Shown: piece after piece, positions 24,536-53,430 of the stretch | How positions within the stretch are numbered: the first letter of the stretch is position 1 | Layout of the letters: each line of letters starts with the position of its first letter | IMG/VR virus record: IMGVR_UViG_3300032770_000005 | Coordinates: 88,858-152,857 of that record | Source: a virus | Strand: one strand, 5' to 3' | DNA: 64,000 nt | Notes under the pieces: model-generated | Databases searched by the model: none | What the model was told of the DNA's origin: nothing | Seen by the model: the letters and a program-made list of their open reading frames with translations, nothing else | Made by a program: the position numbers and the translations under genes

Positions 24536-25405
24536 TCAGCGCGGCCGGCGACTGGTTCGCCGGCTGGTCCGACGGTTCGGTGCGGTGTGCCGACCCTTCC
24601 ACAACCGACGCGGTGGCGGCGCCGCCGGCCAGTGATCGTCGAGCGGCTCCAGCAGCCGCAAGAGCGCTTGCGCCCGCACCGGCGCGTACTGCGCAGCGCC
24701 TTGCACGTTCTGCGGCACGGGGAAGACGAGCAACGTCTCCATCGAGTCGTAGTGCGAGTACGGCGCGTTGTACCACCTGATGCGAATGCCAGAGCGCTGG
24801 TCGAGCGACTCGATGACGCCCTTGAAGCCTACCGGCACCTTCTGGTCGGCCGACCTGAACGTGCTCATCGGCTTCAGCGCCTTGACCACGGTGCCGGGAG
24901 CGTACGTCCGGAGAATCCACAACCACTCGTCCGACTCGTCGGTCGTCGGCGGCGGCGGAGCAGGGTTACCTACGATGGGGTTGGCCTCGATGTCCGGATG
25001 GATGGCGAAGTCGGGCACGCGTCCCACCATGTTGAGCAGCTGCGCGACCTCGTCCTGTGCATCTTGCCGCTCACTCAGCGACCAGCGGCCGCCCAGGTCC
25101 CACGCGACACGGGCCAGGCGCTCGTAGAAGAGCATGAGCGCGGCTCTGCTGAACACGACCGCGGTGCCCATGCGCCCTTCCAGCCGCCCCTCCACCTGCC
25201 CGGTCCTGAGCAGCTCGCGCGCGAGCGGCGTCAGCGTGCTCCACTCGACGACCATGCGCTGCGGAAATGCCGGCGTCCGATCGCCGGCCATCTGCACGCG
25301 CAAGCCCGGCTGCGTCTGATCGAGCATCTGCTGAAGCGCTCGCCGCGACGCGAGCGATGCCGCCAGCGCCGGCGAGTACGCGCTCGGTCTGCGACGGCTA
25401 CTCAT
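24536..25405 (-). CDS. hypothetical protein with basic termini
   Basis: IEANPIVGNP linker; ends TAPNRRTSRRTSRRPR. Confidence 0.6.
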   Translation of the reverse strand: MSSRRRPSAYSPALAASLASRRALQQMLDQTQPGLRVQMAGDRTPAFPQRMVVEWSTLTPLARELLRTGQVEGRLEGRMGTAVVFSRAALMLFYERLARVAWDLGGRWSLSERQDAQDEVAQLLNMVGRVPDFAIHPDIEANPIVGNPAPPPPTTDESDEWLWILRTYAPGTVVKALKPMSTFRSADQKVPVGFKGVIESLDQRSGIRIRWYNAPYSHYDSMETLLVFPVPQNVQGAAQYAPVRAQALLRLLEPLDDHWPAAPPPRRLWKGRHTAPNRRTSRRTSRRPR

Positions 25406-25408
25406 GGC

Positions 25409-25990
25409 TCAGTAGTCGTCCTCGTAGTCTTCGGGACGATCGCGCTCGGCGTACTCCCTGTACGCCTCTTCTTCGTTCCAGTGCTCGTACGGACGCATCA
25501 TGCGCCCCCCGAGGTCATGCAGCAGCTCCTCGATGACCTCGCGGCGCAGACGCAGTTCCTCGTCCCGCTCTCGGAGTTCGCCCTGGTGCTTCTTCCCCAG
25601 ATCTTGCTGGATCTTGAGGACGGCCTGTCGTTCGCCACCAAGCGCCTCGATCTGCTCCGGCGACATGGCATCGACCTGCTCGCGGGCTTCGTCTTCAAGA
25701 CGTTCCCAGAGCATCTCCATATCCGCCTCGCGATCTTCGCGCGAGCGGAACGAGCGTTGCTCTCGTTCTTCTTCGACCTGGTTCCACTCGCCGGCGAGCT
25801 TGCGGATCATCTCTTCGCGGATCTGCTGCTTGCGCGGGTCTTCGCCCTCGCGCGGCTCGACCTCGAACCCGCGCTCGTTGTAGTTGCGTCGCAGCGGCCG
25901 GACCGCGACTGGGCGCCGTGACGTCCGCCGCGGACGCGGTGAGTTCCGACGGGGCGACGGTGAATGACGGGGACGAGACGATCGACGCAT
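25409..25990 (-). CDS. Arg-rich leader fused to an acidic coiled-coil body
   Basis: AGGAG RBS; leader shared with 26011-26721. Confidence 0.6.
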   Translation of the reverse strand: MRRSSRPRHSPSPRRNSPRPRRTSRRPVAVRPLRRNYNERGFEVEPREGEDPRKQQIREEMIRKLAGEWNQVEEEREQRSFRSREDREADMEMLWERLEDEAREQVDAMSPEQIEALGGERQAVLKIQQDLGKKHQGELRERDEELRLRREVIEELLHDLGGRMMRPYEHWNEEEAYREYAERDRPEDYEDDY

Positions 25991-26010
25991 GGTGCACTCC
26001 TTCTACGAGG

Positions 26011-26721
26011 TCAGCTCTTCACCTTCGCACACTCGTACTCCATGGCCGCAAGCATGCGGTCGACCGTCTCCTCATTCGTTTTCGCCTGATCGAGCCCGAT
26101 CAGGTCGTACACGCGCGACGGCGCACGGAAGAACTCTTCCAGCGCGTGCTCTGCGGCGCCCACCGACGCGCTGGTCGAGGCTGCCGCAACGCGGGCGGCC
26201 CAGTCCAACAAGAACAGCAACAGCACGTCCGCGTGCTGAAGGTGCTTCGCGATGACCGCATCAGGACGAGCGGGGAACTCCAGTCCCATCGCTGCTTCGC
26301 CGAACTCTCTGCTGCTGACTACGCGCCCGGCTGCCCCGCGCTCAAGCAACTTCAGGACACGCTTGATCGCGCGTACCTCAGCCGTATGTTTTCGCGACGC
26401 TCCGCCAGTCCGTCGCAGTCCCATCGACACGAGCGCCAGCGCGACCCCCACTACGATCGCACGACACTGGTAGTCCAGCCGACCACGGATGCGCCGGGGC
26501 ACAAGCGGCAACCCGCGGCGCAACGATGCTACGCGCTGGCGGATCTCCGCCGGATGATAGCGGTAGCCCCTGTGTTGCTGGATCTCGTCCAGCAGATAGT
26601 CCAGAGCACGCAGTTCAACCGCAGCGGTGCTCGTCGGGCGCCGTGACGTCCGCCGCGGTCGCGGTGAGTTCCGGCGCAGGGAGCGAGAGTGGTGGCGAGT
26701 GGGACGCGACGATCGGCGCAT
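26011..26721 (-). CDS. Arg-rich leader fused to an unrelated body
   Basis: AGGAG RBS; leader shared with 25409-25990. Confidence 0.55.
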   Translation of the reverse strand: MRRSSRPTRHHSRSLRRNSPRPRRTSRRPTSTAAVELRALDYLLDEIQQHRGYRYHPAEIRQRVASLRRGLPLVPRRIRGRLDYQCRAIVVGVALALVSMGLRRTGGASRKHTAEVRAIKRVLKLLERGAAGRVVSSREFGEAAMGLEFPARPDAVIAKHLQHADVLLLFLLDWAARVAAASTSASVGAAEHALEEFFRAPSRVYDLIGLDQAKTNEETVDRMLAAMEYECAKVKS

Positions 26722-26733
26722 GGTGCACTCCTG

Positions 26734-26913
26734 TCAGCTGCCAGGCTCAGCGGGACCGCCCAAGATCTTGTTGATGCCGATCGGCCCGCCGCTGAGCGGC
26801 CAGATGGCCCACCTGAGCTGGTTCACGGCGACCGCTGCGACGAAGCCGCATGCGAAGATGACCGCGGCAGTGCTGCCGCGACGGTTGCGTCGCATGCGGC
26901 GCGGCAGGCTCAT
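26734..26913 (-). CDS. small TM protein (59 aa, not in ORF track)
   Basis: MSLPRRMRRNRRGSTAAVIFACGFVAAVAV...; ATGA coupling. Confidence 0.55.
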   Translation of the reverse strand: MSLPRRMRRNRRGSTAAVIFACGFVAAVAVNQLRWAIWPLSGGPIGINKILGGPAEPGS

Positions 26914-27401
26914 GATTGCGCCTTGCGCGCTTCCTGACCGCGCTTGTGGCCGTCGAGGTAGGGGCTACCGCCCCACTCGTTTCGGCGCTTGCGCTTGCCA
27001 GTAAACCCGTCGGTGAAGCCGGCGCGGAAGTCATCGAAGTCCGCAAGCGACTCGGCTGTTGGCTGCTCAGCGAGAGCATATTCGTGGAGCTGGGACGTTG
27101 TGTACGGATCGCCCAAGATGAGGTACAGACGCTTGTCGTCACCACGCACAATAGTCCCTGGTCCGCGATACTCGCCAGTGGCCGGAGTCCCGTCCAGGTT
27201 GCTGACGGGGATTTTTACATGGTATGTGCCGTACTCGTATGGCGCATGCGCCGCAGGACCGCTGACCGGACGCGCGTCAACGGTCTGCCACATGAAACCG
27301 TCAGCGACGAACACGCGACTCGGCGGATTGCGCCGCATGCGACGCCGGGGTGTCCGCTTCTTGCGTGAACTGCGCTTCGGCTTGCGTGATGTTCGCTTCA
27401 C
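26910..27401 (-). CDS. Arg-rich leader (MRRNP) plus globular domain
   Basis: GTG start after GGAGG. Confidence 0.6.
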   Translation of the reverse strand: MKRTSRKPKRSSRKKRTPRRRMRRNPPSRVFVADGFMWQTVDARPVSGPAAHAPYEYGTYHVKIPVSNLDGTPATGEYRGPGTIVRGDDKRLYLILGDPYTTSQLHEYALAEQPTAESLADFDDFRAGFTDGFTGKRKRRNEWGGSPYLDGHKRGQEARKAQS

Positions 27402-28288: not shown

Positions 28289-28512
28289 CGCGCGGTCGAA
28301 AGATCTGCGGATGTCGGTCCGATACAGCTGCCGCACGAGGACCTCCTGAACGTGAGCCCGAAGCGAGGCGGGGCGTCCTGCTCTCAGGTTAGTTGGGGCA
28401 CGCCTGGACCGGGGAAACACCCTTTGTGGGGTCCGCGATCAAGACGCACCGCCCCGCTTCCGGCTCACGTTCTACCAAGATTTCGTCCCTTCGCCCACAT
28501 CGGGCCCGACCC

Positions 28513-29214
28513 TCACCGCTGCGGCCTGCTCACGATCTTGTCCAAGATCTCCTTCAGGTCCCCTTGGCCCATGTGGTAGCCGGAGATGCGCACGGAGAAC
28601 ATGCGGATCTCGAACTGCGGCGGCCGCAAGATCCAAGCGGTCGCGTTCACCTGCTGGCCGCTCACGGCGTACGTCGCGAACGCCTCGCCGAGCGGCTCCA
28701 AGGGACCCGCGAACGGGAAGATGGTGCCCTGCATCGGCAGCGGCGCGATCGACGTGCCGCGCGAGCCCTTGGTCGGGTCGTACTGGATGACCTGCCCGCG
28801 CATCGAGACGTTCGTGTTGTAGTCGAGCGGGCTGCGGTTCCCGATGCTGATCTGAAAGCCGACGTACGTGGCGACGCGCGCCTGCGGCACGAGCGTCATG
28901 TCGTCGACGCCGATGCCGCTCGCCTCGTACGCCTCGAACTCGAAGCTCTTCAGCACGAAGGCCATGTTGTTCGGCACTTCGAGGTTGACCAGCGGCACCG
29001 GCACCGGGTACGGCGGCAGGTTGCCGACGAACAGCGGCCGCGGGTAGTTCGCGAAGTACACGCGGTCGAGGAACGTCGTCGATCTGGACGGCAGGAACTG
29101 CCAGAAGCCGTTCAAGATCTGCGTGTTGACCACGCGCGTCGCGCTCTCGACGTCGGGCAGCATGGACGGCGACTGCGAGAGCGTTGCCGCGCCTCGTCGG
29201 ATCGAGCCGCTCAT
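28513..29214 (-). CDS. putative virion (capsid-associated, beta-rich) protein
   Basis: beta-strand-rich; follows the capsid candidates. Confidence 0.45.
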   Translation of the reverse strand: MSGSIRRGAATLSQSPSMLPDVESATRVVNTQILNGFWQFLPSRSTTFLDRVYFANYPRPLFVGNLPPYPVPVPLVNLEVPNNMAFVLKSFEFEAYEASGIGVDDMTLVPQARVATYVGFQISIGNRSPLDYNTNVSMRGQVIQYDPTKGSRGTSIAPLPMQGTIFPFAGPLEPLGEAFATYAVSGQQVNATAWILRPPQFEIRMFSVRISGYHMGQGDLKEILDKIVSRPQR

Positions 29215-29254
29215 GGTGACCTCCGCTGTGCGGGCGTGCCCATCCCGCTGTGTC

Positions 29255-30193
29255 TCAGACCGCCGGCGACTGCGCCTGGAGGATCTTGTATCCGAGCATC
29301 GTGAAGTAGAGGACGCCGCCGACCGCGAGCACCTGCCGGCCGATGTTGCCCGACACCGTGGGGTCGGGCGGCGGCTGCGCATCGCCCTCGGCGAAGCCGT
29401 TCGGGAGCGCGGCGTAGTTGTTCTCGACGAAGCCGAGGTCGCGCGTCAGCGTCACGTTCAGCGTGATCACCGAGTTCTGCGTGAAGAAGTCGGACGCCGG
29501 CAGGTACGCCGGCCGGTCGAACTCCGTGAACAGGTAGCGCGACGAGGAGGGGATCTCGTTCTGGCGCGTACGGTTGCTGCCGCTGTCCATGATCTCGAAC
29601 AGGAAGTCGATGGTGCCCGGCCGGAACGTCTGCACGGCCTGCGCATCGGCGACCGTGTCGGGGCCGAGGCCCACGCCGATGTACGCGCCCGAGAACGGGT
29701 CGGCAGTGCTCGCGATCGGCCGCCACCGCCCGGTGAAGGGCGAGATGACCTCGGTGCCAATCGGCGGGTCTCCAGGTCGACCGTCCGGCGGATCGATCGT
29801 GCCGTACGGGCCGATCGAGTACGTCTTCATCAGGAACGCCGCCATGAGCGACGTCGCGACGAAAGGACCGTCGGTGCTGATGGTCTGCGTCGCCGGCAGC
29901 CGCGACCCCGCGAGCGACACGCTCGGGTTCGAGGGGCCGGGGATCGGGACGTTGAAGTTCAGGAAGTAGGGCACCCGCTTGCCCGGGATGTCCTCGATGT
30001 AGCGGATGCGCTCCGCCGCCTTCTTCACCGCGTCCCGCAGCTGTCCGATGACGAGCTGGTTGTCGCTGTTCTGCTGCGCGAGCTGCTTGTACGCCTTCAG
30101 GAGCGACTTCATCTGAGTCGCCATGCGCTGCTCGCGGTCCATCAGGCCGCGGAGATAGGCAGCAACCTGGGGATCATCGGTGATCGAGGGCAT
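29255..30193 (-). CDS. putative second capsid protein (coiled-coil N-terminus plus beta-rich domain)
   Basis: beta-rich, ends LYFTMLGYKI; adjacent to the MCP candidate. Confidence 0.45.
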   Translation of the reverse strand: MPSITDDPQVAAYLRGLMDREQRMATQMKSLLKAYKQLAQQNSDNQLVIGQLRDAVKKAAERIRYIEDIPGKRVPYFLNFNVPIPGPSNPSVSLAGSRLPATQTISTDGPFVATSLMAAFLMKTYSIGPYGTIDPPDGRPGDPPIGTEVISPFTGRWRPIASTADPFSGAYIGVGLGPDTVADAQAVQTFRPGTIDFLFEIMDSGSNRTRQNEIPSSSRYLFTEFDRPAYLPASDFFTQNSVITLNVTLTRDLGFVENNYAALPNGFAEGDAQPPPDPTVSGNIGRQVLAVGGVLYFTMLGYKILQAQSPAV

Positions 30194-30389
30194 CTGGGAT
30201 CCGCCTTCCTCTTCCGCGTCTTTCAGCGGCGTTGGTTGGTGACCAGGCGCCTCCTCAGCGCGAGGTCATGTGTCTCGTGAGAGACTGGCCGGGGATGGCC
30301 GCCGCAGGGACTGATGTCCTGCGACCTCCGCTTACGACGCGAGCGGCGCAAGCAGAGGTCGCAGGGCGCCGAAGCGCCCCGCGATGCGT

Positions 30390-31163
30390 TCAGAGGACGT
30401 CGCGGCTGTGGACGCCATCGATCAGGTACTTGACGTCCTTCTCGATGTTGTCGATGCCGTTGACCGTCAGGTCGCCGGTGACCGGCTGGGTCACGCCGGG
30501 GCTGATCGCCGCCGCGGGACCCACCGTGCCGTCGATCTGGCCGGCGAGCTGGTCGATCATGTTCGCACCGGTCGACGGGCCGATCGGGCTCGCCGTGACG
30601 ATGCACTGGAAGCCCTGACGCGGCGGGATGAGGATCGGCCGCGCGAGCCGCATGAGGGCCGACGAGGTCGGCACGCCGTTGTTGAACCGCGGCAGCCGCG
30701 AGTCCGAGCTGAAGCCGTCGAGACCACCGGCGAACGGCGTGTACGCCGTGAACGTGGTGAGCTGCGGCTTGTCACCGGCCTGGAACTGCCAGAACAGCTG
30801 GTTCTCGGCCTGCATGTACAGCTTGTAGACGCGCTGCACACGATCCGGGAACACGCCTGCCACCGAGCCCACCGACGTCTGCACCTGGTTGACCAGGAAC
30901 TGCGCCTCCGGGTTGAACCGGAAGTACGTCCAGACGCGCACCGCGAGGGTGATGAACGTCTGGTCCGACGGCAGGAAGCCGCCGGTGGTGAGGTTGGTGA
31001 TGGCGATGTCGCCACCGCCCTTGAGGAACAGCTGGGTGCGCGGCTGGGGCACGCTGAACGTGTTCAGCGGGTTGAGCCGCAGGTCGGTGGACCCGTCGAC
31101 GCGGATGAGCGAGTCGTAGAACGGCTGATGGACGCGCTCGCGCGTCCCCACGATCTTGGGCAT
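30390..31163 (-). CDS. putative major capsid protein (single jelly-roll-like)
   Basis: strong AAGGAG RBS; QPFYDSL..LF..TNL..GGFLP pattern; flanked by structured UTRs; fold is inferred only. Confidence 0.5.
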   Translation of the reverse strand: MPKIVGTRERVHQPFYDSLIRVDGSTDLRLNPLNTFSVPQPRTQLFLKGGGDIAITNLTTGGFLPSDQTFITLAVRVWTYFRFNPEAQFLVNQVQTSVGSVAGVFPDRVQRVYKLYMQAENQLFWQFQAGDKPQLTTFTAYTPFAGGLDGFSSDSRLPRFNNGVPTSSALMRLARPILIPPRQGFQCIVTASPIGPSTGANMIDQLAGQIDGTVGPAAAISPGVTQPVTGDLTVNGIDNIEKDVKYLIDGVHSRDVL

Positions 31164-31200
31164 GTCGTTCTCCTTCGAGACACCGTCCCGCGCCATAATT

Positions 31201-31348: not shown

Positions 31349-32077
31349 TCAGCCGGAAGCTCCGCTGAACAACATCCGAGAGAACATGCCGCCGGCCCAT
31401 CCTCGGCCGTCCGGCGTCGCCATCTGCTCGCGGACCCTGCGGACCGCTCTCTTCTTCACCACGGGGAACGCGAGGTCGATGGGGCTCACGGTCGAGATCG
31501 GCTCGTCCGAGTGCCGCACGTCGTTGATGACCGACTCGTCGTACCCGTCGAGGCCGAACATGCCGCGGTACGGCGCGCCGGCGTGGCTGATGTCGATCAT
31601 GTAGTTCGCGCCCATCCCCGAGACGGGCCCGGGCCCCATCGGCACCATGGCCACGGGCGCGACCGGCGCGGGTGCGGGGGTCGGCGTCGGCAGCACGGTG
31701 TCCTGGATGAGCTGGAGCGGCAGCCACGGCTTCAGACCGCTCACGCCAGCGCCGGCCGCGATGGACATCTGCGTCTCGGGCGAGAGACCGAGCGGCTGCC
31801 CCACCGCGTACGCCGCGATGGCGCTCGCGAGCGAGGCGCCGGTCGCGACGATGCGAGGATCCATGGTCGGCAGGTACGAGCCGCCGACCATGGAGCCCAG
31901 CCACTGCGCGAGGATCATGCCGCCCGTCGCCCCGAGAGCCGGCACCACGACCTTGTCGACCAGGTCGGCGCTCCCGAGGTTGCGAGCGAGGCGCCGAACC
32001 GAGCTGAAGCCGCGCACGCGGCGGTTGTGCACCACCGCGTACGCGTTTCTGCTGACTCGGCGCCTTCGCTTGCTCAT
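31349..32077 (-). CDS. membrane virion protein with basic N-terminus and ~3 TM segments
   Basis: C-terminus GRGWAGGMFSRMLFSG paralogous to 32087-34546. Confidence 0.7.
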   Translation of the reverse strand: MSKRRRRVSRNAYAVVHNRRVRGFSSVRRLARNLGSADLVDKVVVPALGATGGMILAQWLGSMVGGSYLPTMDPRIVATGASLASAIAAYAVGQPLGLSPETQMSIAAGAGVSGLKPWLPLQLIQDTVLPTPTPAPAPVAPVAMVPMGPGPVSGMGANYMIDISHAGAPYRGMFGLDGYDESVINDVRHSDEPISTVSPIDLAFPVVKKRAVRRVREQMATPDGRGWAGGMFSRMLFSGASG

Positions 32078-32086
32078 GACTGCTCC

Positions 32087-36225: not shown

Positions 36226-36238
36226 CGGTACCACCAGC

Positions 36239-37441: not shown

Positions 37442-37443
37442 GG

Positions 37444-44281: not shown

Positions 44282-44821
44282 TCAGCGATGGCGACGAACC
44301 CCACGCCGACTGTTGCGACGCACGCGCCGGTAGCGTCGGTTCGCGGCGACCGAGCTGCTGCGACCCGAGAACATCAGCCACGCTGCACCGGCGCCGACGC
44401 CCCACCAGAGCCACGGCAGCCCGAGCGGGCCCGGCGACATCAGCAGCGATGGCGCCGACGTGACGACGGGCACCGGCACCACGACCGGAGCCGGAGCCAT
44501 CACCGGAGCCAGCGACGTGTCGGGCACGTAGGGCGTGCTGAGGGGCGAGACCACAGGCGCGATCGCGCTCGCGTCACCGCCCGAGCTGTCGATGGGCTTG
44601 ACCGTGCCGTCCGGCGCGATCGTGACGGCCGCCGCATCGGGCACCGCCTTCACCACCGACACCGTCGAGTCGTCCGGCATGACCGCGGGCATGTTCTGCC
44701 CGCTCCCATCGTCGACCATGACGACGGGCGCCGACGACGCGTCGACCGACGCATCGGTCGGAGCATCGCCTGCACCGAGACCGAATCGACGACGACGCAC
44801 TGGGCTTCTTCGGTAGCTCAT
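44282..44821 (-). CDS. GLGA/TM virion protein
   Basis: RRFGLGA; TM; VAANRRYRRVRRNSRR. Confidence 0.7.
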   Translation of the reverse strand: MSYRRSPVRRRRFGLGAGDAPTDASVDASSAPVVMVDDGSGQNMPAVMPDDSTVSVVKAVPDAAAVTIAPDGTVKPIDSSGGDASAIAPVVSPLSTPYVPDTSLAPVMAPAPVVVPVPVVTSAPSLLMSPGPLGLPWLWWGVGAGAAWLMFSGRSSSVAANRRYRRVRRNSRRGVRRHR

Positions 44822-44833: not shown

Positions 44834-45988
44834 TCAGCTCTTGAGAACGTTCCGTAGTGCAGAAAGCACTGTCGGAGCCAACTGCGCCGAGACCTGCGTC
44901 GCCGCTGGCAACGTGATCGCGAGCTTCGGTGCTGTGCCGGCGTCGGACGGCATGCCGAAGATCGGAGGCCGGATGTCGGCCCCCTTGAACGTCGCCTGCA
45001 CGTTGCCGATGGCCTGCGCCATGCCTCGCGACGACCAGCCGTTGAGCACGGCCCAGATCAGCTCCGGCGGCAGCCGCGCCTCGTAGCCGTCGCACGCGTC
45101 CGGCCCCGTGTTCGGGCCGAAGTTGTAGCCGCTCGGCCACGTACCGTAGACGAACAGCTGCGAGCCCATCGCCGTGTCCGCAGCCACACCGTCGTCGAAG
45201 AACGCCTTGAGGGCGCCGATGACGGCACCGTCCTCGTTCGTGTTGATGTCGTCCTGCGCCGAGAGATAGCCGGCCTGCACCAGCTCCTGCACGAGCACCG
45301 TGTTCCAGAAGAAGTCCTGGTTGTTCAGGTACGTGTAGCCGCCGCTGTTGACCCACAGCGGCGTCTGCGGATTGGCCAGACGCTCGTACAGACCCTGCGC
45401 GATGTGCAGGTCCTTCGAGCTGTTGGTGTTGGGCCCGAAGTTGAACGAGCCGCAGGTCCACAGCGACGGGTCACGCCCCATGCGCACCCAGTAGCACTTG
45501 AGCGCGGTGATGAACGGCGCGTCTTCTCGGATCTCGTAGTTGCGACCCGCCGGCCACGAGATGTAAGGGCGCCGCGCCGAGAAGTTGCCGGTGTCCGGGT
45601 CCGTCGTGGCCAGCGGCGACTGCGCGTACACCTCCACCAACCGGTGTTGCAGGAGGTTCAGGACGCCGTCGTCACTGATGGTGCCCCAGTTGACGCTGTT
45701 GTTCTGAAACAGCGCACCGCCGGTCGCCACGCTGAAGTCGGGCAGCGCCGTCACGGTCGCCGGCTGTGGATAGCCGATGAACCCGCTCGCTGGCTGATTC
45801 GCATAGAGCGTGTTGGTACGCGCTGCCGGCGTCAGCTGCTGCATCTGCGCAGCGAGTGAGGCTTGGATCTGCGCCACACGCGACGTCGACAGCGACTGCT
45901 GCCACAGGTTCGTGTCGGGCTGAACGTTCTGACCGAGGCCATAGCTCCGGCCGCGACGCACGAGACGCTTCCGCACGGAGTAGCTCAC
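44834..45988 (-). CDS. GLGQ-leader protein without TM (putative spike/surface protein)
   Basis: MSYSVRKRLVRRGRSYGLGQN; internal NFGPNT repeat. Confidence 0.7.
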   Translation of the reverse strand: MSYSVRKRLVRRGRSYGLGQNVQPDTNLWQQSLSTSRVAQIQASLAAQMQQLTPAARTNTLYANQPASGFIGYPQPATVTALPDFSVATGGALFQNNSVNWGTISDDGVLNLLQHRLVEVYAQSPLATTDPDTGNFSARRPYISWPAGRNYEIREDAPFITALKCYWVRMGRDPSLWTCGSFNFGPNTNSSKDLHIAQGLYERLANPQTPLWVNSGGYTYLNNQDFFWNTVLVQELVQAGYLSAQDDINTNEDGAVIGALKAFFDDGVAADTAMGSQLFVYGTWPSGYNFGPNTGPDACDGYEARLPPELIWAVLNGWSSRGMAQAIGNVQATFKGADIRPPIFGMPSDAGTAPKLAITLPAATQVSAQLAPTVLSALRNVLKS

Positions 45989-47589
45989 GCGTACCTCCGT
46001 TCACGGAACGACGTGCGTCGACGACTGCGCCGGCTACGGTTCTTCGCCACCGCCTGTCCGCTCGCCGCCGACGTCGCAGCGGGGAGCTTCGTGCGCTCTG
46101 CCTCTTTGCGATGGCGGCGACGGACCTTCAGGATGATGAGGCCGCCGAGCACGAGCGTGCCGCCACCGACGAGCCACGTCCACGCAGGCGCCGGGCCCCA
46201 GTTCTTCAGGTACCACGCGAGGCACGACTGCTGGATGGCCGTGTTGAGCTGCGTGCTCGCCGTGTCGATCGCCGTCAGCGTCTGGTTGAGCAGATCGCGG
46301 TTCGTGCTGAGCACCGATGCGTTCTGCCCGGCCTGCGACAACAGCTGCGGGATCTGCTGCAACTGCCGTGCAACGCTTGCCTGAGCATTCGCAAAGAACT
46401 CACACGTAAAGTAGTTCTTGCCCACCGCCATCTTGGTCAGCGGGCTCGTCGACACCGCGTTGTTCGCGGCGGCGAGCATCTGCGCTCGCACCTGAGCCGA
46501 GATAGGGCCACCGCCTGGCTGGCTCTCTTGTGCAACCAACTGCTGAATCGCAGTGACGTTTCCGAGGCCCGCGCTGATCTGCGCTCTGGCCGCTTGCAGC
46601 TGAGCGATTGCCTGCTGAGCGGCCGCCACGGCTGGTCCGCAGGTATCGGGCGTCGCCGAAGTTACCTGGGTCACGAGCGCGGGAACCTGCGGCAGCAGTG
46701 CAGCAGGCAGCGGCGCTGCTGCGACTGCGGCGGCAACGCTAGACGTCAGTTGCGTCACAGCATCGGTGATGCCTGCATTGCCAGTGACCGCCCCGAGCTG
46801 GGTAGTGGTGGCACCAAGCAAAAAGACCTCGGTCAGGGCGAGCAAGACCTGGAGCATGGCGACCGCCGAAGCGATCGCCGCGTTCTGAAGGTCCGAGTCC
46901 GCCTTGCCGCTCGCGATCTTCGGGATGACGCCGACGCCGATGGTCTTGCCTCCGGGATTCAGCGCGTCGTAGACGCCGCCGACGCCGTTGCGCGGGTCGA
47001 CCCCTGTCCCCGCCTTCACCACGGCGTTCACGTAGTTGACGAAGTTCGCGGCGCTGACGGTGGCCTGCCAGCCTCCGAACGCGAACCACAGCGTCCCCCT
47101 CGTCTGCACGCCCGCACCGGGGTCCGGCATCCAGCCCGATGCGACGAACATCGGCGCCGAGGGAATCCACTTGTTCGTCGGGGAGATCGCCAGCAGCGTC
47201 GCCTGCACGAGCACGTCGCCCGCACCGCCGCCGCCGTACACGCCGCTCAGGAGAGACTGAATCTGGTCGTCGGTGAGCTTGATGTACGGGAATGCGAGCA
47301 CGCCGATCTGCCCCGCCGCCACGCCCGCGGGCGTCGCATCAGGCGTTGGCGGGAGCCGCTTGCACCACGACGGCACGAAGTCGAGGCTGGTGACCTGCGC
47401 CGGCTGCACTGCCACCTGGTTGGGCAGACTCGACAGCTGCTGCGCGGTCCCCTGCGAGATGGTCGGAGGCACGGCCTGGCCTCCGGCCGGCACCACGCCT
47501 TGCTGAGCGGCCGCCTGCTGGGCAGACGTCTGCGCGTCAGACACCGTCTGACCCAGATGTCCACGTGCTGGCAGCCGCCGGTAGCTCAT
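45985..47589 (-). CDS. large helical TM virion protein
   Basis: GHLGQT; A/Q-rich helices; TM; VAKNRSRR. Confidence 0.7.
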   Translation of the reverse strand: MSYRRLPARGHLGQTVSDAQTSAQQAAAQQGVVPAGGQAVPPTISQGTAQQLSSLPNQVAVQPAQVTSLDFVPSWCKRLPPTPDATPAGVAAGQIGVLAFPYIKLTDDQIQSLLSGVYGGGGAGDVLVQATLLAISPTNKWIPSAPMFVASGWMPDPGAGVQTRGTLWFAFGGWQATVSAANFVNYVNAVVKAGTGVDPRNGVGGVYDALNPGGKTIGVGVIPKIASGKADSDLQNAAIASAVAMLQVLLALTEVFLLGATTTQLGAVTGNAGITDAVTQLTSSVAAAVAAAPLPAALLPQVPALVTQVTSATPDTCGPAVAAAQQAIAQLQAARAQISAGLGNVTAIQQLVAQESQPGGGPISAQVRAQMLAAANNAVSTSPLTKMAVGKNYFTCEFFANAQASVARQLQQIPQLLSQAGQNASVLSTNRDLLNQTLTAIDTASTQLNTAIQQSCLAWYLKNWGPAPAWTWLVGGGTLVLGGLIILKVRRRHRKEAERTKLPAATSAASGQAVAKNRSRRSRRRTSFRERRYA

Positions 47590-47945
47590 CGCCGCCGCCG
47601 GTTCCTCCGCACGCGCTTTCCTCGCCCCCTGTTCCTCCCCATCCGGTTCTCACGGAGCGTCGGACGACGCAGCGAGTACCAGACGAGGAACATGAGGCTC
47701 GATGCGGAGATCGCGAGCCCGAGGATGGTGTACTGCTCCATCCGCGCGGCGTAGTCGTCGACGGTCGTGGTGCTCGTGCTGGTCTGGCCGAGCGGATGCT
47801 GACGCAGCATCGGCGTATGCGTCTGCCACACGACCGGGCTCACGGGGCCGCGGTAGCGCTGCGGTTGGCTGAGGTCGGCGAAGACCCACGGGTTCGTGAC
47901 GCCCCACGGAGCGTAGCCGAGCCTTCTGTCGACCTTGTAGCTCAC
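47586..47945 (-). CDS. small TM virion protein
   Basis: PLGQT; TM; LRENRMGRN..VRRNRRRR. Confidence 0.7.
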   Translation of the reverse strand: MSYKVDRRLGYAPWGVTNPWVFADLSQPQRYRGPVSPVVWQTHTPMLRQHPLGQTSTSTTTVDDYAARMEQYTILGLAISASSLMFLVWYSLRRPTLRENRMGRNRGRGKRVRRNRRRR

Positions 47946-47958: not shown

Positions 47959-48633
47959 TCAGGACGCGAGCGACTTGAGGAAGTTCAGCAGCGCTTCGCC
48001 GCCGTTCGCGTTCGCGGCGTTGATCGCTCCCTGCGCAGCCGTCACGAGCTGGTCGCGACTGGCGTACGGCATGTTGAGCCAGGCCGCCGCACCGCTCTGG
48101 GCGAGGCCGCGGATCCTCGTCATGAGGTCCGCCTCCTGCTGCGGCGTGCCGGGGCTGCTGTACATGCCGCCCGCAGCACGGACCGCAACCGCGGTGGGCA
48201 CAGCGACCGCGGCACCGCCACCAGGTCCCTGCGTCTGCGCCGACGACGCACCCGCGGGCGCGAGCGCGGCCGACGCCGCACCGCCAGGAGCGACCGCGAC
48301 CGCGGGCTGCACCATCGGCGCGACCCGTGGCTGCGGCAGCGTCAACGCGTACGCCACCAGCCGCACCCGCGAGATCTGATTCGCCGGCGCGCTGTACGGG
48401 AACGTGTTGAAGCGTCGCGTCTGGAGCTGCTGCTGCATGCCGCGCAGCGCGGGCACGAGCGACAGCAGCGCCTGCACGACCCGACCGGAGCCCGCGTTGT
48501 GCATCTGCGCGAGCAGCGCTGCCTCCTGCGCGGGCGTACCACGCATGACGACCGTCGTGCTCACCGGATAGCTCACCGCGGGCGCAGCGATCTGCGCCAC
48601 CGTCTGGCCCATTCCGTACCTGCGTCTCATCAT
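47959..48633 (-). CDS. GMGQ-leader Ala-rich protein
   Basis: MMRRRYGMGQT; GTP.QEA.L repeated. Confidence 0.65.
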   Translation of the reverse strand: MMRRRYGMGQTVAQIAAPAVSYPVSTTVVMRGTPAQEAALLAQMHNAGSGRVVQALLSLVPALRGMQQQLQTRRFNTFPYSAPANQISRVRLVAYALTLPQPRVAPMVQPAVAVAPGGAASAALAPAGASSAQTQGPGGGAAVAVPTAVAVRAAGGMYSSPGTPQQEADLMTRIRGLAQSGAAAWLNMPYASRDQLVTAAQGAINAANANGGEALLNFLKSLAS

Positions 48634-48642
48634 CGCGTCCTC

Positions 48643-48936
48643 CTACTCTTCGTCGTCCTTGTCTCGATCTCGGGCCCGTCGGTTCCGGGTCGTCCGCGCT
48701 TCACGCTGCTGGCGCGGTAGCCACCAGGCGAAGTAGAGCCACGCGGCGCCCACGACCGCGGCGCCCGCACCGAAGCACACGAGCGGCTGCCGATAGAACG
48801 GCACCGTCTCCTCGGTGGTCGTCTGCCCCATGGGGTAGGACGGCACGCCATAGAGGGGATACGGCGCCATGCCTGCCGAGGCGTGCGCCTCGCTCATCTC
48901 GGCAGCCTGCTCTTGGTACGGGTCGCTGAACGGCAT
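48643..48936 (-). CDS. small TM virion protein
   Basis: PMGQT; TM; TTRNRRAR. Confidence 0.65.
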   Translation of the reverse strand: MPFSDPYQEQAAEMSEAHASAGMAPYPLYGVPSYPMGQTTTEETVPFYRQPLVCFGAGAAVVGAAWLYFAWWLPRQQREARTTRNRRARDRDKDDEE

Positions 48937-48973: not shown

Positions 48974-49597
48974 TCAGCGACGGTTGCGCGAGACGCGACG
49001 GGGGTGACGGCGCGAGGGCGGACGTGGAGTGAGGAGCGTGTGCCACCCGTGGCGCGTCCGGACGTGGATGGCGGGGCGGTACGGGCCGGACGTGCGCTTC
49101 GGGTACGACTTCCACTGACCCGTTGCTGTGCGTGATCGCTTCGGCCGGCTCGCGCCGCCGTTGCGCGAGACCCGACGGCGCCCGTTGCGCGAGACGCGGC
49201 GGTGCGAACGGCGATGGCCGTTGCGCGAGACGCGGCGGTGGTTGCGCGAGACGCGGCGGTGCGAACGGCGGCTGTGGTTGCGCGAGACGCGGCGATGGTT
49301 GCGCGAGACGCGGCGATGATGACGCCGGTGGTTCGCGGTGACCGAGGTCCGGTGGCTTCTGCGCCGGCCGAGCCCGACCGCGTAGCGCTTGCTGCCGCGT
49401 CGGATGACGACGTGCTTCTCGCCACGGTTCACGAGTGAACGCGCCTTGCCTCGCGCCACGCTGAGCGTGCGTGCGTGCGCGACCACGCGGTGCGCCCGGC
49501 CGCTCATGATCTCGTAGAGCTTCCGGCCGCTCATCATCTCGTAGAACTGCTTCCGGATCTTGCGAGCGGACCGATGCTTTTTCCGACGACGGGTCAT
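48974..49597 (-). CDS. protamine-like DNA-condensing protein with RRVSRN repeats
   Basis: extremely Arg/His-rich; RRVSRN about 7 times. Confidence 0.7.
   Translation of the reverse strand: MTRRRKKHRSARKIRKQFYEMMSGRKLYEIMSGRAHRVVAHARTLSVARGKARSLVNRGEKHVVIRRGSKRYAVGLGRRRSHRTSVTANHRRHHRRVSRNHRRVSRNHSRRSHRRVSRNHRRVSRNGHRRSHRRVSRNGRRRVSRNGGASRPKRSRTATGQWKSYPKRTSGPYRPAIHVRTRHGWHTLLTPRPPSRRHPRRVSRNRR
49160..49317 (-). repeat. tandem gttgcgcgagacgcggcg units encoding RRVSRN
   Basis: six near-identical copies, plus one at ~48982. Confidence 0.8.
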
Positions 49598-51015
49598 CGC
49601 ACTCCTACTTTCCGCGCCAACCGGCGCATTCGTCGACGCGCATTCCGCTGCATGCTGCGTCCCTCGTTCGTACCGTTCATGAGCACATAGCCAGCTCCCA
49701 GCACCGCAGCGGCGATGAGGAGATTCATTCCGATCGACGACCCGCTCGTGGGCGCCGGGGTCGCGGTCGTCTGATCGGGCACGACCTGCCCCATGCCCAT
49801 CGCAGCGGGGCTCTTGGTCAACTTGGTGACGTCGCTCTGCATCGCGCTCGCGTCGGTCGCGATCGGCGCGAGGTGCTGCGCCGCAGCGTTCCGGAGAGTC
49901 TGCGCGCCGATCTTCACCTTCGCGCCCATCTTGTCGATGCGCGGAAGGCCACGTGCGCCACGACGACGGTCCATGAGGTCGTTCATCGTCGCGTGCATCA
50001 CGCAGTGCGCGAGCGTGTCTTCGAGCGCCGTGTCCGGGCGCCAGCCCATCTGAACGAGACGCTCCGAGACCTGACGGCACTTCGCCGTCATGCCCGGACC
50101 GAGCGCCTCGGTCGCGGCGCTGATGAAGGCGCTCCGAGCCGGGACCGAGCCGATGGCCTTCGCCTCGTCGACCACGACCTTCGCTGCCTTGCGGCCGAAC
50201 GCCTCGATGTGCGAGTGCGGCCCGACGGCATCGGCGTGCATCGAGGGCATGGCGCCGGTCGCCACGAAGGGCGAGATCTCCGGCTTCAGCTTGGCGACCC
50301 GCCGCATGAGCGAGACGCCGCTCGCGTTCGGCTGCACGACGCGCCACTCGTTCGCCGTCGAGTCCCACATCTCCGACTGCGCCGTGTCCATCTCGCCCTC
50401 GTGCGCGATGTACGCCGGCAGCGCGAAGCCGTGCTGGAAGATCCCATCACGCGCTCGCCACGTGACGCCCTCCTCCATGTCGAAGATTCCGTCGCCGATG
50501 ACGTTCTGCGGGTCGTCGTCGTACTCGAATGAACTGCGGTCGTAGAGCGTCGCAGGATCGATGTCCGCGTTCGACGGCTCCTGGTTGAACTGCTGCTGTC
50601 GAGCGGGACGCACGGGCACACGCTGGTCGGCCACGCGACGCGCGATCTCCTTCGACGGCGACTCGCTGCCGCCCGAGAGGCCGGTGTTCATCGAGTACGG
50701 GCGATACCCGCCGCCGCTCCCCGGGCCCCACGGATGGCTGCCGTACTGCGTGACGAGCATGTCCGGCGACTCGGCATCGTTCGGGTTGAACAGCGCCTGA
50801 TCGAGCCCGTCGACGTCGAACGCCGGAGCCGGACCGTCCTGCGGACGCGAGGGCGTGTCCTCCTGGAGATCGTCGTCCAGGATGGAACTGTTCGGAACGC
50901 CGGGGATGTTCGTGTAGTCCTCCGCATCGAGATTCGCGTCGCCGCGCATCGTCGGGGGGATCAGCGCGCCCGCGTCGCCGTCCAGGTCCAGTAGGAAGTC
51001 GAGTTCGTCGTCCAT
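49594..51015 (-). CDS. acidic N-terminus, helical domain and C-terminal TM
   Basis: MGMGQV before TM; MQRNARRR tail; domain related to the two upstream genes. Confidence 0.7.
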   Translation of the reverse strand: MDDELDFLLDLDGDAGALIPPTMRGDANLDAEDYTNIPGVPNSSILDDDLQEDTPSRPQDGPAPAFDVDGLDQALFNPNDAESPDMLVTQYGSHPWGPGSGGGYRPYSMNTGLSGGSESPSKEIARRVADQRVPVRPARQQQFNQEPSNADIDPATLYDRSSFEYDDDPQNVIGDGIFDMEEGVTWRARDGIFQHGFALPAYIAHEGEMDTAQSEMWDSTANEWRVVQPNASGVSLMRRVAKLKPEISPFVATGAMPSMHADAVGPHSHIEAFGRKAAKVVVDEAKAIGSVPARSAFISAATEALGPGMTAKCRQVSERLVQMGWRPDTALEDTLAHCVMHATMNDLMDRRRGARGLPRIDKMGAKVKIGAQTLRNAAAQHLAPIATDASAMQSDVTKLTKSPAAMGMGQVVPDQTTATPAPTSGSSIGMNLLIAAAVLGAGYVLMNGTNEGRSMQRNARRRMRRLARKVGVR

Positions 51016-51036
51016 TCTCGTGCTCCGCGCCCGAGG

Positions 51037-51768
51037 TTAGTCCAGAAGCCAGTTGAACGCGAGAAGGCCGAGGATCACCGCTCCCCCGATCTCCGCTGCC
51101 CTGATGTACGTCTGCTCGCGCTGCTGCTGCGCTTGCGCCGCCGCCGCTGCCTGCTCGTTGATCGCCGCCGCCTGCGCCGCCTGCGCTTGTGCGGTCTGCT
51201 GTTGCAGCGCTTGCTGCCCCGCGTTGCAGTTGAGCGCACCCGACGCGACCGAACTGCCGATGCTCAAGGCCGCGCCGATGATCGTGCCGTACACCGGGAT
51301 GATCGACACGACTCCGCCGGCGACCGAGCCGGCCGACGCGGCGACGCATGCGGCCTGCTGCGTGTTCGGGTCGATGTCGCCGAGCGGCGTGTCGACGAGC
51401 TGATCCCAGCCACGCTGCGCCCCCTGCGTGTGCCGAATGAGCGTCAGGTCGCGCTCCATCATGTCGTTGGCGAACACGACCCGCATCGCGTCGTACGCGG
51501 CCTGATCTGGCGTCTTGCCCTTCTTGAGCAGCGCCTGCATCTGCGCAGCGACCGCGGGGGTGTAGCTCGCATCGAGCTGATTCAGCGCCGACTCCATGAC
51601 ATTCAGTCGCGAGGCCGCCGGCGCCTGCGCCATCTTGAGCATGATCTTCGAGGCCAGTAGAGAGGCCCGCGCCACGTAAGGGTCCTTGTAGGCCGAGGCA
51701 CCCACCGACACGGTGGAAACCGCACCTAGCGAGTGACGCTGACTACGGTGGTAGCTCACCTCCATCAT
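51037..51768 (-). CDS. membrane virion protein, paralog of 51765-52526
   Basis: DP...AS..AS..MLKMA..P...RL..M..ALN...DQA..DA.R...AN. Confidence 0.7.
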   Translation of the reverse strand: MMEVSYHRSQRHSLGAVSTVSVGASAYKDPYVARASLLASKIMLKMAQAPAASRLNVMESALNQLDASYTPAVAAQMQALLKKGKTPDQAAYDAMRVVFANDMMERDLTLIRHTQGAQRGWDQLVDTPLGDIDPNTQQAACVAASAGSVAGGVVSIIPVYGTIIGAALSIGSSVASGALNCNAGQQALQQQTAQAQAAQAAAINEQAAAAAQAQQQREQTYIRAAEIGGAVILGLLAFNWLLD

Positions 51769-52526
51769 GCCTTCTTGACAATCACGTAGATGACGCCGAG
51801 AACGCCGATAAGACCTGCTCCGATCAGCGTGTACTGCATGACCTGCGCGCTCTGCTGCTGCTGGAGCGCGAGCGTCTGCACGGCGCCGTTCTGCGCGATC
51901 TGCGCTTGCGCGGTGGCCGTCTGCGCTTGGATGAGCAGCTGTCCGGCGTTGCAGCCAGCGATCGAGGCGCCCTGTCCCACGCTACCGCCGATGGCTCCGG
52001 AGCTGTTCACCGTGCCTGTCGACTGAAGAAACCCGCCGACCACGCCGGCTACCGGCAGAACGGTCGAGCACATGACCGCGTTGGCGTCGTTCACGCTCTG
52101 GCTCGTCTGCCCGAGAATCTCGGACACAGTCTGACCCATGCCCGACGTCCCTGGCGACGCCTGCGCCTTCAGCGCCAAGAGCCGTGGGACGAGCGCGTTC
52201 GCGACGGCGATGCGAATCGCGTCGAACATCGCCTGGTCCTTCTGGTTCGCCGCGTACTTCGGAAGGCTGGCGAGGTAGGCCGCCTTCGTCTGATCTCCGA
52301 GACCGGCCTGGGCCCGGTTCAGCGCCGTGACCATCGTCGCGAGGCGCTGGGCCTGCGGCACCGAGGCCATCTTCAGCATCACGTGCGAGGCGATGACCGA
52401 CGCCGAGGACATGATCGGATCGGTAAGCGCTGCCTGACCGACCTGTACCGGCGCTTGGTCACCGGTGTCGATGGCCTGCCCGAGCCCCATGAGCCCAGGC
52501 CCCATGCCGCGTCTCCGACGTCGCAT
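51765..52526 (-). CDS. membrane virion protein, paralog of 51037-51768
   Basis: GMG/GLGQ leader; shared helical domain; C-terminal TM. Confidence 0.7.
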   Translation of the reverse strand: MRRRRRGMGPGLMGLGQAIDTGDQAPVQVGQAALTDPIMSSASVIASHVMLKMASVPQAQRLATMVTALNRAQAGLGDQTKAAYLASLPKYAANQKDQAMFDAIRIAVANALVPRLLALKAQASPGTSGMGQTVSEILGQTSQSVNDANAVMCSTVLPVAGVVGGFLQSTGTVNSSGAIGGSVGQGASIAGCNAGQLLIQAQTATAQAQIAQNGAVQTLALQQQQSAQVMQYTLIGAGLIGVLGVIYVIVKKA

Positions 52527-52870
52527 CACCATCTCCTTCGTCGGCGGTTCCGCGCGACGCGCTGCGCCGGCTGACCGAAGCCCTGAGCAAACGCGATCGG
52601 CAGCGCGAACGGCCACGCTGCTCCGCCCAGCACGCCCCAGACGAGCGCCCAGCCAACGGACTGCGTGCGCCGGTACCCGTGGTAGGTCAGAGCCGCCGAG
52701 GCGATGAGCCCGCCGACGTAGAGCAGCCCGCGCAGCGGGTTCGGTCCGCTCGACCCTCCGTTCGACGACGTGTCGGTCGTGACGGCGGACGTGGTGGCTG
52801 GCGCGATGGGCGCCGGCGCCGGTGTCGTCTGACCCAGCGGCGCACGCGCGTAGTAGGGGATGGCCGTCAT
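52526..52870 (-). CDS. small two-TM virion protein
   Basis: PLGQT; YHGYRR..SVGWALVWG; VARNRRRRRW. Confidence 0.7.
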   Translation of the reverse strand: MTAIPYYARAPLGQTTPAPAPIAPATTSAVTTDTSSNGGSSGPNPLRGLLYVGGLIASAALTYHGYRRTQSVGWALVWGVLGGAAWPFALPIAFAQGFGQPAQRVARNRRRRRW

Positions 52871-53430
52871 TGGACGTCGAAGATCGAGTACTGCTTGACG
52901 CGGTTCAGCATGGACGCCGTTCGACGTCCTGCGACCGGGTCGAGCACCCACCAGATCTTCGTGCGCGGATCTTGTGCGCGCACGAAGACGTGCGTGTGTC
53001 GCTTGCTCTGGAACGGGCGGCGCGGCTCGAAGCCGACGGTCACGAACTGGACCGGCGCGCCCACGACGAGGCAGTCGGTGCCGATGCCCAGGCTCTGCTC
53101 GTCGCAGTCGATCGTGAGACGCCCGGCATCGGCGTCGTCGATCATCTTCTCCGGATCCTTCATCATCTCCACGTGGAGCGGGTCGCGGGCGTAGCGCCCG
53201 GCGTTCGTCCACCAGCGGAGGATCGCGAACATCTCGCTCGTGTAGTCCTTCGGACGGACGTTCGCGATGATCTGCTCGGCGTGTCGCCTCACCCGGATGC
53301 TGCGCTCGCCACGCGGGCCGAGCGCGAGCTGCACCATGCGCTGAACCGTGTGGTCAGTGCCACGGTACGGCTCGATGGTCCCGACCGCATGGTTGTACGC
53401 CGGGTCGTAGCTGTGGGCGCGTAGGTGCAT
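52867..53430 (-). CDS. transglutaminase-like cysteine protease
   Basis: YARDP..E, IDCDE, HTHVF, WWVLDP form a Cys-His-Asp triad. Confidence 0.75.
   Translation of the reverse strand: MHLRAHSYDPAYNHAVGTIEPYRGTDHTVQRMVQLALGPRGERSIRVRRHAEQIIANVRPKDYTSEMFAILRWWTNAGRYARDPLHVEMMKDPEKMIDDADAGRLTIDCDEQSLGIGTDCLVVGAPVQFVTVGFEPRRPFQSKRHTHVFVRAQDPRTKIWWVLDPVAGRRTASMLNRVKQYSIFDVQ

Follow-up and report, generated by a model that had tools for sequence, protein, structure and literature searches.

Why do the proteins of one viral gene block so often begin or end with the same few residues, and what could these residues do? The question was raised by IMG/VR virus record IMGVR_UViG_3300032770_000005, a 152,857-bp genome rated complete, of which the final 64 kb (64,000 nucleotides, positions 88,858 to 152,857; in the following called the window) were analysed. 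The window has a G+C content of about 68%. Between approximately 23.7 and 57.7 kb every gene lies on the minus strand, and many genes of this block overlap their neighbour in an ATGA or GTGA start-stop sequence. A preliminary description of the block had pointed out two short motifs, an x-L-G-Q-type peptide near the N-terminus (here called the leader, M-[S/T/P]-Y ... G-[L/M/F]-G-[Q/A], in short G-phi-G, with phi for a hydrophobic residue) and the sequence [V/L/M/I]-x-x-N (phi-x-x-N) with Arg residues behind a transmembrane (TM) helix. This observation was confirmed for about twenty proteins of a large, apparently tailless and membrane-containing virus and extends to the whole clade of related viruses, and the end-tags probably set the place of each protein in the particle. 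Positions are window coordinates unless marked as genome, the genome comprising the window and the 88.8 kb upstream of it. Based on ATGA/GTGA overlaps with the upstream stop, 14 start codons were corrected, resulting in a curated list of 42 genes.

With the corrected starts, x-[L/M/F]-G-[Q/A] was found at residues 5-51 in all 14 genes for which it had been listed, ten of them showing the strict G-phi-G-[QA] and four P-phi-G-Q or H-phi-G-Q. The motif counts were compared to 500 composition-matched shuffles within each protein, both for the block and for the other 127 open reading frames (ORFs) of the genome, as the preliminary description had proposed. In the block, G-[LMFV]-G-[QA] was observed 14 times compared to 2.2 +/- 1.5 expected (maximum of 7), and phi-x-x-N-[RK][RK] nine times compared to 1.1 +/- 1.0 (maximum of 4), both motifs lying about 7-8-fold above the shuffles. 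The other ORFs showed no excess for either motif (9 observed versus 6.4 expected and 3 versus 3.0, respectively), and in a six-frame map the patterns were restricted to the minus-strand coding frames. Eight genes start with M-S-Y, others with M-P-Y, M-x-Y or an S-Y a few residues further in. A start with M-[S/T/P]-Y was determined for 9 of the 42 module proteins compared to 3 of 122 elsewhere in the genome (p = 3e-4), and the three starters outside the module likewise have an L-G-Q element. These counts tie the leader to the actual start of the protein. It is followed by a polar linker rich in Thr, Ser, Pro and Ala.

The second motif was observed in 13 window proteins, in which a hydrophobic, Gly-rich TM helix is followed 8-30 residues later by [V/L/M/I]-x-x-N and an Arg run; about 30-50 proteins of the relatives show the same helix-then-basic-cluster ends. 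The TM helices are alike, with an aromatic entry of the W-x-W type and Gly-Gly pairs, and the cassettes of linker, TM helix and tail are weakly homologous among the block proteins (BLAST E 1e-4 to 1e-16). The tagged proteins are therefore not wholly unrelated, and their earlier characterisation as otherwise dissimilar cannot be maintained. Proteins without a TM helix carry either the leader or the basic tag, never both, in agreement with the tendency described before; this holds for the curated list of 42 genes. The basic tag of soluble proteins can be located at either terminus, and soluble proteins with a leader alone also exist. Furthermore, tandem R-R-x-S-R-N units occur in two proteins of the block, one of 207 residues (29% Arg) and one of 819 residues, in the latter within its basic tracts. 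The Asn closes the N-terminal basic peptide of soluble proteins and opens the C-terminal basic tails, which points to a junction residue in both orientations.

In eight or more relatives, the stretches upstream of the capsid genes and the surroundings of the enzyme gene (described below) were compared, and both motifs appeared in every relative. Among them are L027, with just 37% identity in the enzyme, as well as L031 and L032, with 45-50% identity in the capsid gene; altogether, the motifs were kept across relatives with a major capsid protein of 45-63% identity. In relatives with 60-64% G+C, the tails are rich in Lys in place of Arg and the Asn is retained, so that the high G+C content does not create the motif. 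In strictly filtered tails of the relatives, the Asn stands directly before the basic run in 20 of 32 cases, with a background of 2.4% Asn. Of the 43 orthologous sequences of the 47586-47945 protein, 39 start with M-[STP]-Y. Y3 and L52 are conserved to at least 90% and G53 is invariant, and the residue after the second Gly varies between Q, A, T, E, D and S. Likewise, 39 of the 43 sequences comprise phi-x-x-N with a basic run, and these tails show V, M, L or I at position -3 in 37 and A, P or S at position -1 in 31 cases. In orthologues, the leaders persist while the linkers gain or lose tens of residues.

An origin of the motifs from the high-GC composition is excluded by the shuffles, by the Lys tails of the lower-GC relatives and by the motif-free other frames. 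The motif-bearing gene ends show no DNA similarity, from which it follows that selection acts on the peptides; a repeated DNA cassette holds true solely for the leaders of 25409 and 26011. In these two otherwise different genes (25409-25990 and 26011-26721), the ribosome-binding site and the basic leader are 94-97% identical in DNA, i.e. this leader is a recent copy of a leader module. The signal-peptidase site A-x-A was also considered for phi-x-x-N and rejected, because Pro or Lys at -1 and the Arg run behind the site do not fit.

The genes of the block and their tags are as follows.

52867-53430, minus strand: 187-residue transglutaminase-like Cys-His-Asp enzyme at the head of the membrane-protein run, carrying neither motif.
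52526-52870, minus strand: 114 residues with P-L-G-Q at residue 11, two hydrophobic segments flanking an H-G-Y-R-R loop and, after the second segment, G-F-G-Q and V-A-R-N with an Arg run; architecture kept in six relatives.
51765-52532, minus strand: membrane protein of 255 residues; Arg leader, G-L-G-Q (residue 16) and, inside the chain, G-M-G-Q (residue 131).
51037-51768, minus strand: 243 residues, S-Y near the N-terminus, S-L-G-A at residue 13, without Arg tail; neighbouring paralogue of 51765-52532 (37% identity).
49594-51015, minus strand: 473 residues, internal G-M-G-Q at residue 407 directly before the TM helix, then M-Q-R-N and a basic tail; seven orthologues align here, six of which keep G-[ML]-G-[QES] and the phi-x-x-N behind the helix, and L025 the former alone.
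48974-49597, minus strand: 207-residue core-type protein without TM helix; Arg content of 29%, R-R-V-S-R-N repeated about seven times in tandem; resembles the basic tract of 32087-34546 (E 9e-12).
48643-48936, minus strand: 97 residues, P-M-G-Q at residue 35; the TM helix is followed by T-T-R-N with a basic run; its orthologues retain the Asn even with a Lys-rich or non-basic tail.
47959-48633, minus strand: 224 residues, no TM helix, leader alone (G-M-G-Q at residue 7).
47586-47945, minus strand: 119 residues, beginning with S-Y; a conserved domain precedes P-L-G-Q (residue 51) and the TM helix, and the tail consists of L-R-E-N and more x-x-N units with Arg runs.
45985-47589, minus strand: 534 residues, M-S-Y, H-L-G-Q at residue 11, C-terminal TM helix, V-A-K-N, Arg tail.
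44834-45988, minus strand: 384 residues, no TM helix, leader alone (S-Y start, G-L-G-Q at residue 17), retained in orthologues despite gain or loss of about 60 linker residues.
44282-44821, minus strand: 179 residues, M-S-Y, G-L-G-A at residue 14, TM helix, V-A-A-N, Arg tail.
43052-44269, minus strand: 405 residues, M-S-Y, G-L-G-Q at 16, internal repeats, Pro run, TM helix, V-S-A-N, Arg tail.
42786-43055, minus strand: 89 residues, G-L-G-Q at residue 5, TM helix, V-S-P-N, basic tail.
42379-42789, minus strand: 136 residues, G-I-F...L-F-G-G-M element, G-M-G-Q at residue 21, TM helix, V-A-A-N, Arg tail.
41598-42314, minus strand: 238 residues with an acidic N-terminus; V-S-K-N behind the TM helix leads into an acidic linker and a globular domain that is conserved and takes the place of the Arg tail.
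40975-41577, minus strand: 200 residues, G-F-G-A at residue 19, TM helix, V-A-K-N, Arg tail.
40376-40975, minus strand: 199 residues, M-P-Y, G-L-G-Q at residue 20, TM helix, L-A-S-N, Arg tail.
39651-40379, minus strand: 242 residues, M-S-Y without G-phi-G, TM helix, two L-R-Q-N units, Arg tail.
38337-39602, minus strand: 421 residues, M-S-Y, G-L-G-Q at 15, TM helix, V-A-K-N and Arg, followed after the Arg tail by two repeats with x-S-R-N ahead of each.
35204-38334, minus strand: soluble proteins 37444-38334, 36239-37441 and 35204-35905, each with an Arg-rich R-T-S-R leader ending in phi-x-x-N.
35902-36255, minus strand: leaderless gene inside this span.
31349-34546, minus strand: proteins of 819 and 242 residues with reversed order (basic x-x-N tracts, hydrophobic segments, repeated G-[VML]-G units).
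28513-31196, minus strand: three tandem, highly conserved beta-rich genes including the capsid candidate 29255-30193.
24325-27401, minus strand: more tagged proteins, with basic N-terminal leaders on 26910, 26011 and 25409.
24536-25405, minus strand: C-terminal T-A-P-N with an R-R-T-S-R-R tail.
24325-24516, minus strand: 63-residue M-S-Y protein with a G-L-G-A end.
Genome 44643, 60237-60959, 60524-60784, 62248-63147, 63795 and 72964-73401, beyond the window: further small ORFs outside the main block with an M-S-Y...L-G-Q leader, a V-A-K-N/Arg tail, or both.

In the 41598-42314 family, the Asn was retained in six of seven orthologues. Since it is kept there before an acidic linker, phi-x-x-N has to be regarded as a motif in its own right. 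The C-terminal 80 residues of the 36239-37441 protein are HicA-like (phrog_2089, E 5.5e-15; Pfam HicA_toxin, E 0.003); ahead of them lie two paralogous domains, with T-P-N or R-P-N as the last residues of each. The reversed order noted before for the 31349 and 32087 genes was found again, the number of TM helices being uncertain. Both proteins share the C-terminal peptide G-R-G-x-A-G-G-phi-F, which is kept in their relatives and, in its full form G-R-G-x-A-G-G-[IM]-F-x-R-x-L-F, constitutes a third shared element. The G-I-F...L-F-G-G-M at the N-terminus of 42379-42789 resembles this element.

The untagged gene 52867-53430 at the head of the membrane-protein run is conserved with 59-76% identity across the clade, and C109, H147 and D164 are invariant in 20 homologues. 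The transglutaminase profile PF01841 matched 11 of these 20 (best E 2.6e-6), the window protein itself scoring below E = 1. The AF2 model (predicted local distance difference test, pLDDT, of 86) comprises a transglutaminase core. Foldseek assigned it to the putative proteases 3kd4 and 3isr and to LapG (4u65_E/4fgq) with a probability of 1.0 and E of 8e-5 to 7e-3; TgpA and PeiP were among the further matches. Judged from this model, the closest solved folds are putative proteases and LapG, not cross-linking enzymes, and the protein is a candidate for a leader protease. LapG cuts its substrate LapA between Ala108 and Ala109, a site of small residues, and thereby removes the N-terminal module (PMC3032545). 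A complex prediction of the enzyme with residues 1-45 of the 43052-44269 protein, run without controls, resulted in a score of 0.01 and gave no answer.

The capsid candidate 29255-30193 was modelled as a long N-terminal helix and a jelly roll or beta sandwich (pLDDT 66). Its structural neighbours are mostly viral jelly rolls, i.e. those of SPV1 (Z 7.3), HCIV-1, PBCV-1 and vaccinia D13, besides the capsids of small plant and CRESS viruses, with best Z scores of 7.3-7.4 to viral as well as non-viral jelly rolls. The model thus suggests a candidate jelly-roll capsid protein. Since hhalign among the three capsid-like gene families (28513-31196) showed no similarity, the fold support applies to this one alone. 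For 29255-30193, 212 homologue clusters with 58-68% identity were found on contigs of up to 259 kb, and relatives were also found on IMG/VR contigs of 62-298 kb. FtsK/HerA ATPase (PF01580 included), terminase and HK97 capsid families gave no match in the 153-kb genome, and its single canonical Walker A belongs to a helicase-like ORF (genome 75184-77478). Judged from these profile searches, the virus may lack a packaging motor.

Beyond these genes, Pfam and PHROGs profile searches with 20 module proteins gave almost no matches, a sequence search of the PDB matched designed repeat proteins alone and was judged meaningless, and neither this virus clade nor its motifs were found described in the literature. 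The host labels of the metagenome-assembled genomes of relatives conflict (Deltaproteobacteria, Lentisphaeraceae, Planctomycetota, Bifidobacteriaceae), and the Atlas taxa of the homologues are generic labels.

How can these observations be combined? We tentatively favour the explanation that the motifs are portable assembly signals, namely Asn-bounded basic genome-binding tags and a capsid-side N-terminal leader, possibly a propeptide; our confidence in it stays somewhat short of even. According to this explanation, a tailless, membrane-containing virus would build its particle around a protein-condensed genome. The basic R-R-x-S-R peptides bounded by [V/L/M/I]-x-x-N would act as protamine-like genome-binding tags: at the C-terminus of tail-anchored proteins they would tie the inner membrane face to the DNA, on either end of soluble proteins they would bring cargo into the core, and as tandem units they would form core-condensing proteins. 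The leader M-[S/T/P]-Y...G-[L/M/F]-G-[Q/A] with its Thr/Ser/Pro-rich linker would mark the capsid-facing end of a protein and could be read by the capsid, a scaffold or a processing factor. As a propeptide it might be removed by the cysteine protease from the head of the operon, LapG-like and with a transglutaminase fold, which would cut behind the second Gly. Papain-like clefts suit a hydrophobic residue at P2 with Gly at P1. Trimming is suggested by the hydrophobic residue beside the Gly, the variable next residue and the flexible linker behind the site, and the genome-binding role of the basic peptides agrees with a virus that has protamine-like proteins of its own and apparently no packaging motor. 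The explanation as assembly signals fits the pattern best: both tags occur on membrane proteins, one on soluble proteins and tandem units in core proteins.

The preliminary description had proposed a virion sorting or maturation system with the two motifs on opposite faces of the membrane. The conserved, portable, protein-level signals in a block of virion genes support the general idea, while DNA binding, docking, cleavage and topology are what we infer from them. For single-pass proteins the opposite faces result automatically and are hence trivial, and for the 52526-52870 family with its two hydrophobic segments they are doubtful; here P-L-G-Q, G-F-G-Q and the V-A-R-N Arg tail may, judged from the order of the segments, lie on one side. 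The latter is one of several points that weigh against assembly signals. Binding and cleavage are deduced from sequence and context. According to the positive-inside rule, the Arg tails stay cytoplasmic, and N-terminal parts of 40-470 residues would have to cross the membrane without a signal peptide, or the membrane would have to form around the DNA. The Asn is kept without a basic tail in the 41598-42314 family and in the L026 orthologue of 48643-48936, which makes DNA binding alone insufficient as an explanation. Viral transglutaminase-fold enzymes can be cell-wall lysins, as the match to PeiP recalls, so that the enzyme may be unrelated to the motifs. Finally, the evidence for the capsid fold is weak (Z of about 7, pLDDT 66).

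The strongest rival, which we nevertheless regard as unlikely, is a pure maturation code, in which both motifs would be cleavage sites, G-phi-G for the transglutaminase-fold protease and phi-x-x-N for a cut after Asn by autocleavage or by an Asn-specific peptidase. Free Arg peptides comparable to adenovirus mu would then remain in the core, domains would be freed from their anchors and cargo from its leaders. It ranks as the strongest because the conservation lies solely N-terminal of each junction, at -3, at -1 and in the near-invariant Asn, with R, K, S, A, G, D, E or P following. An Asn that closes N-terminal leaders and opens C-terminal tails, marks the domain borders of 36239-37441 and precedes the globular domain of 41598-42314 would suit such cuts, as would the internal G-M-G-Q of 49594-51015, which separates a domain from its anchor. 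Asn-Xaa autocleavage occurs in the capsids of nodaviruses and reoviruses. Besides the conserved protease-like enzyme of the block, a membrane metzincin-like gene is located at 18808-19389. However, no Asn-specific peptidase was identified in the analysis, cuts at each unit would reduce the 207-residue core protein to heptapeptides, and G-phi-G and phi-x-x-N are too unlike for one enzyme. Plain paralogy is a weaker rival and appears improbable: a single small membrane protein would have been duplicated, and leader, Gly-zipper helix and positive-inside tail would be inherited and serve for anchoring only. The weak homology of the C-terminal cassettes and the tandem gene arrangement agree with it, as does the coding of M-S-Y: of about 31 cases, 24 read ATG-AGC-TAC, compared to a share of 35% for AGC among the Ser codons. 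This bias is partly due to the ATGA overlaps and the preferred A at +4, and other Ser/Thr codons occur. In contrast, the motifs are found on unrelated globular parts, on TM-less proteins and at either terminus, their ends lack DNA similarity, they outlast a deep divergence in which adjacent residues drift, and the constraint on the Asn far exceeds the need of a positive-inside tail.

The topology puzzle would be resolved if the leader were a new export or insertion signal by which the N-terminal parts cross the host membrane with the Arg tail left inside. Its place at the exact N-terminus, the R-R present in many leaders and a residue 2 that always permits removal of the start Met are in line with this. 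Nevertheless, this is very doubtful, since a polar linker follows in place of a hydrophobic core, which led to the rejection of a Tat or Sec signal, several leaders contain no basic residue, and TM-less proteins carry the leader as well. The least credible explanation is a cross-linking code, in which the transglutaminase-like enzyme would join capsid or membrane proteins, via their Lys residues, to the Gln in G-L-G-Q; it can refer to the Cys-His-Asp core and to a Gln within a flexible N-terminal peptide, but about one third of the sites show A, T, E, D or S instead of Gln, and proteases are the closest folds of the enzyme.

Several genes around the block were additionally observed. The metzincin-like gene 18808-19389 encodes 193 residues with an N-terminal hydrophobic segment and an H-E-x-x-H-x-x-G-x-x-H site (Reprolysin_5, E 1.5e-6; Peptidase_M10, E 1e-4) and represents a second protease candidate near the block. 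At the block end, 23741-24325 encodes a DnaJ-domain protein (PF00226, E 9e-14), whose counterpart in L032 has an Arg leader ending in A-T-P-N. The 202-residue protein 56561-57169 ends in a long Glu/Asp run that is kept in L015, L025 and L026, and it could act as a chaperone or scaffold for the Arg-rich proteins. A dual-specificity-phosphatase-like match (genome 40612-40872, E 9.5e-9, slightly under the cut-off) and a weak protein-kinase-like match (genome 73976-74122, E 1.9e-4) may be relevant given the abundant R-R-x-S sites in the tags. The non-structural part of the window includes the ThyX thymidylate synthase 10201-11070 (PF02511, E 4e-26) and a YspA/SLOG-family protein at 19848-20246 (E 3e-15).

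Extended to its limit, the explanation as assembly signals would describe a clade of bacterial viruses of 140-300 kb with motor-free assembly, in which Asn-punctuated Arg peptides condense the genome, the membrane is zipped on via the peptides of tail-anchored proteins, and the leader docks under a jelly-roll shell and is trimmed by the transglutaminase-fold protease. As a complete scenario this is speculative and rather unlikely. If true, it would parallel adenovirus-style core maturation in a prokaryotic virus, with a peptide code for both sides of the membrane. If the explanation as assembly signals holds, an assembly route without packaging ATPase would be indicated, and the motifs would provide a simple sequence rule listing virion proteins by membrane, core and capsid-side class, applicable to a large uncultured clade with more than 200 capsid-gene clusters and contigs of up to 298 kb. 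The tags, being small and portable, could be tested for cargo loading into such particles.

Shared targeting or maturation peptides are known from T4, adenovirus and encapsulins. To our knowledge, none have been described for membrane-containing prokaryotic viruses, and we know of no system with one tag per end of a membrane protein. Like the adenovirus precursors pVI, pVII and pX/mu, many proteins of the block show short Gly sites with a hydrophobic residue, accompanied by Arg-rich, protamine-like core peptides. In adenovirus, the cavity of the hexon holds an N-terminal peptide of pVI. The adenovirus protease acts on DNA-bound substrates (PMC4246237). The sites nevertheless differ: the consensus of the adenovirus protease (AVP), (M/I/L)-x-G-G-x or (M/I/L)-x-G-x-G, has its hydrophobic residue at P4 and does not match the motif described here, in which this residue adjoins the last Gly at the putative P2. 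AVP belongs to the adenain fold (clan CE), whereas 52867-53430, the sole protease-like gene inside the block, has a predicted transglutaminase fold with the order C-H-D. Furthermore, adenovirus comprises no membrane and has a packaging ATPase, and cleavage in the present virus is putative. LapG resembles the enzyme in fold and C-H-D triad and removes an N-terminal module, but it is periplasmic, calcium-dependent, controlled by c-di-GMP, limited to a single substrate class and not viral.

In T4, an N-terminal leader, the capsid targeting sequence, directs unrelated internal proteins into the particle and is removed by the prohead protease. A short common N-terminal leader on unrelated virion proteins is found here as well, although T4 is tailed, has an HK97 capsid and no membrane, cuts after L/I-x-E and lacks a second, C-terminal tag. 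The LPXTG, PEP-CTERM, MYXO-CTERM and GlyGly-CTERM signals share the C-terminal hydrophobic helix and basic cluster on many unrelated proteins. In these signals the signature precedes the helix and a sortase-type cut is made, while phi-x-x-N follows 8-30 residues after the helix and also occurs on helix-less proteins. A sortase- or exosortase-type signal was consequently rejected, since phi-x-x-N lies C-terminal of the helix, in line with the earlier statement that the system is not MYXO-CTERM. Regarding the particle, viruses of the Sphaerolipoviridae type, with vertical single jelly rolls, differ by their FtsK/HerA-type ATPase, which was not found in the 153-kb record (PF01580); one of the three capsid candidates was modelled as a jelly roll (pLDDT 66; Z 7.3-7.4, a weak match). 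In Sulfolobus polyhedral virus 1 (SPV1, Portogloboviridae), a lipid layer and a nucleoprotein core lie beneath a jelly-roll shell, and the virus is not known to encode a packaging ATPase. The SPV1 capsid protein ranks with the best structural matches of 29255-30193 (Z 7.3, likewise a weak match), but SPV1 is archaeal, has a 20-kb genome, and a comparable motif system is not known from it. The basic units themselves resemble protamines, baculovirus P6.9 and SPKK-type repeats in their Arg runs interrupted by Ser or Thr, and in P6.9 phosphorylation of R-R-x-S-like sites reportedly controls DNA condensation. In contrast to protamines and P6.9, the units of the present virus are interspersed with Asn and occur as fusions with membrane anchors and cargo proteins.

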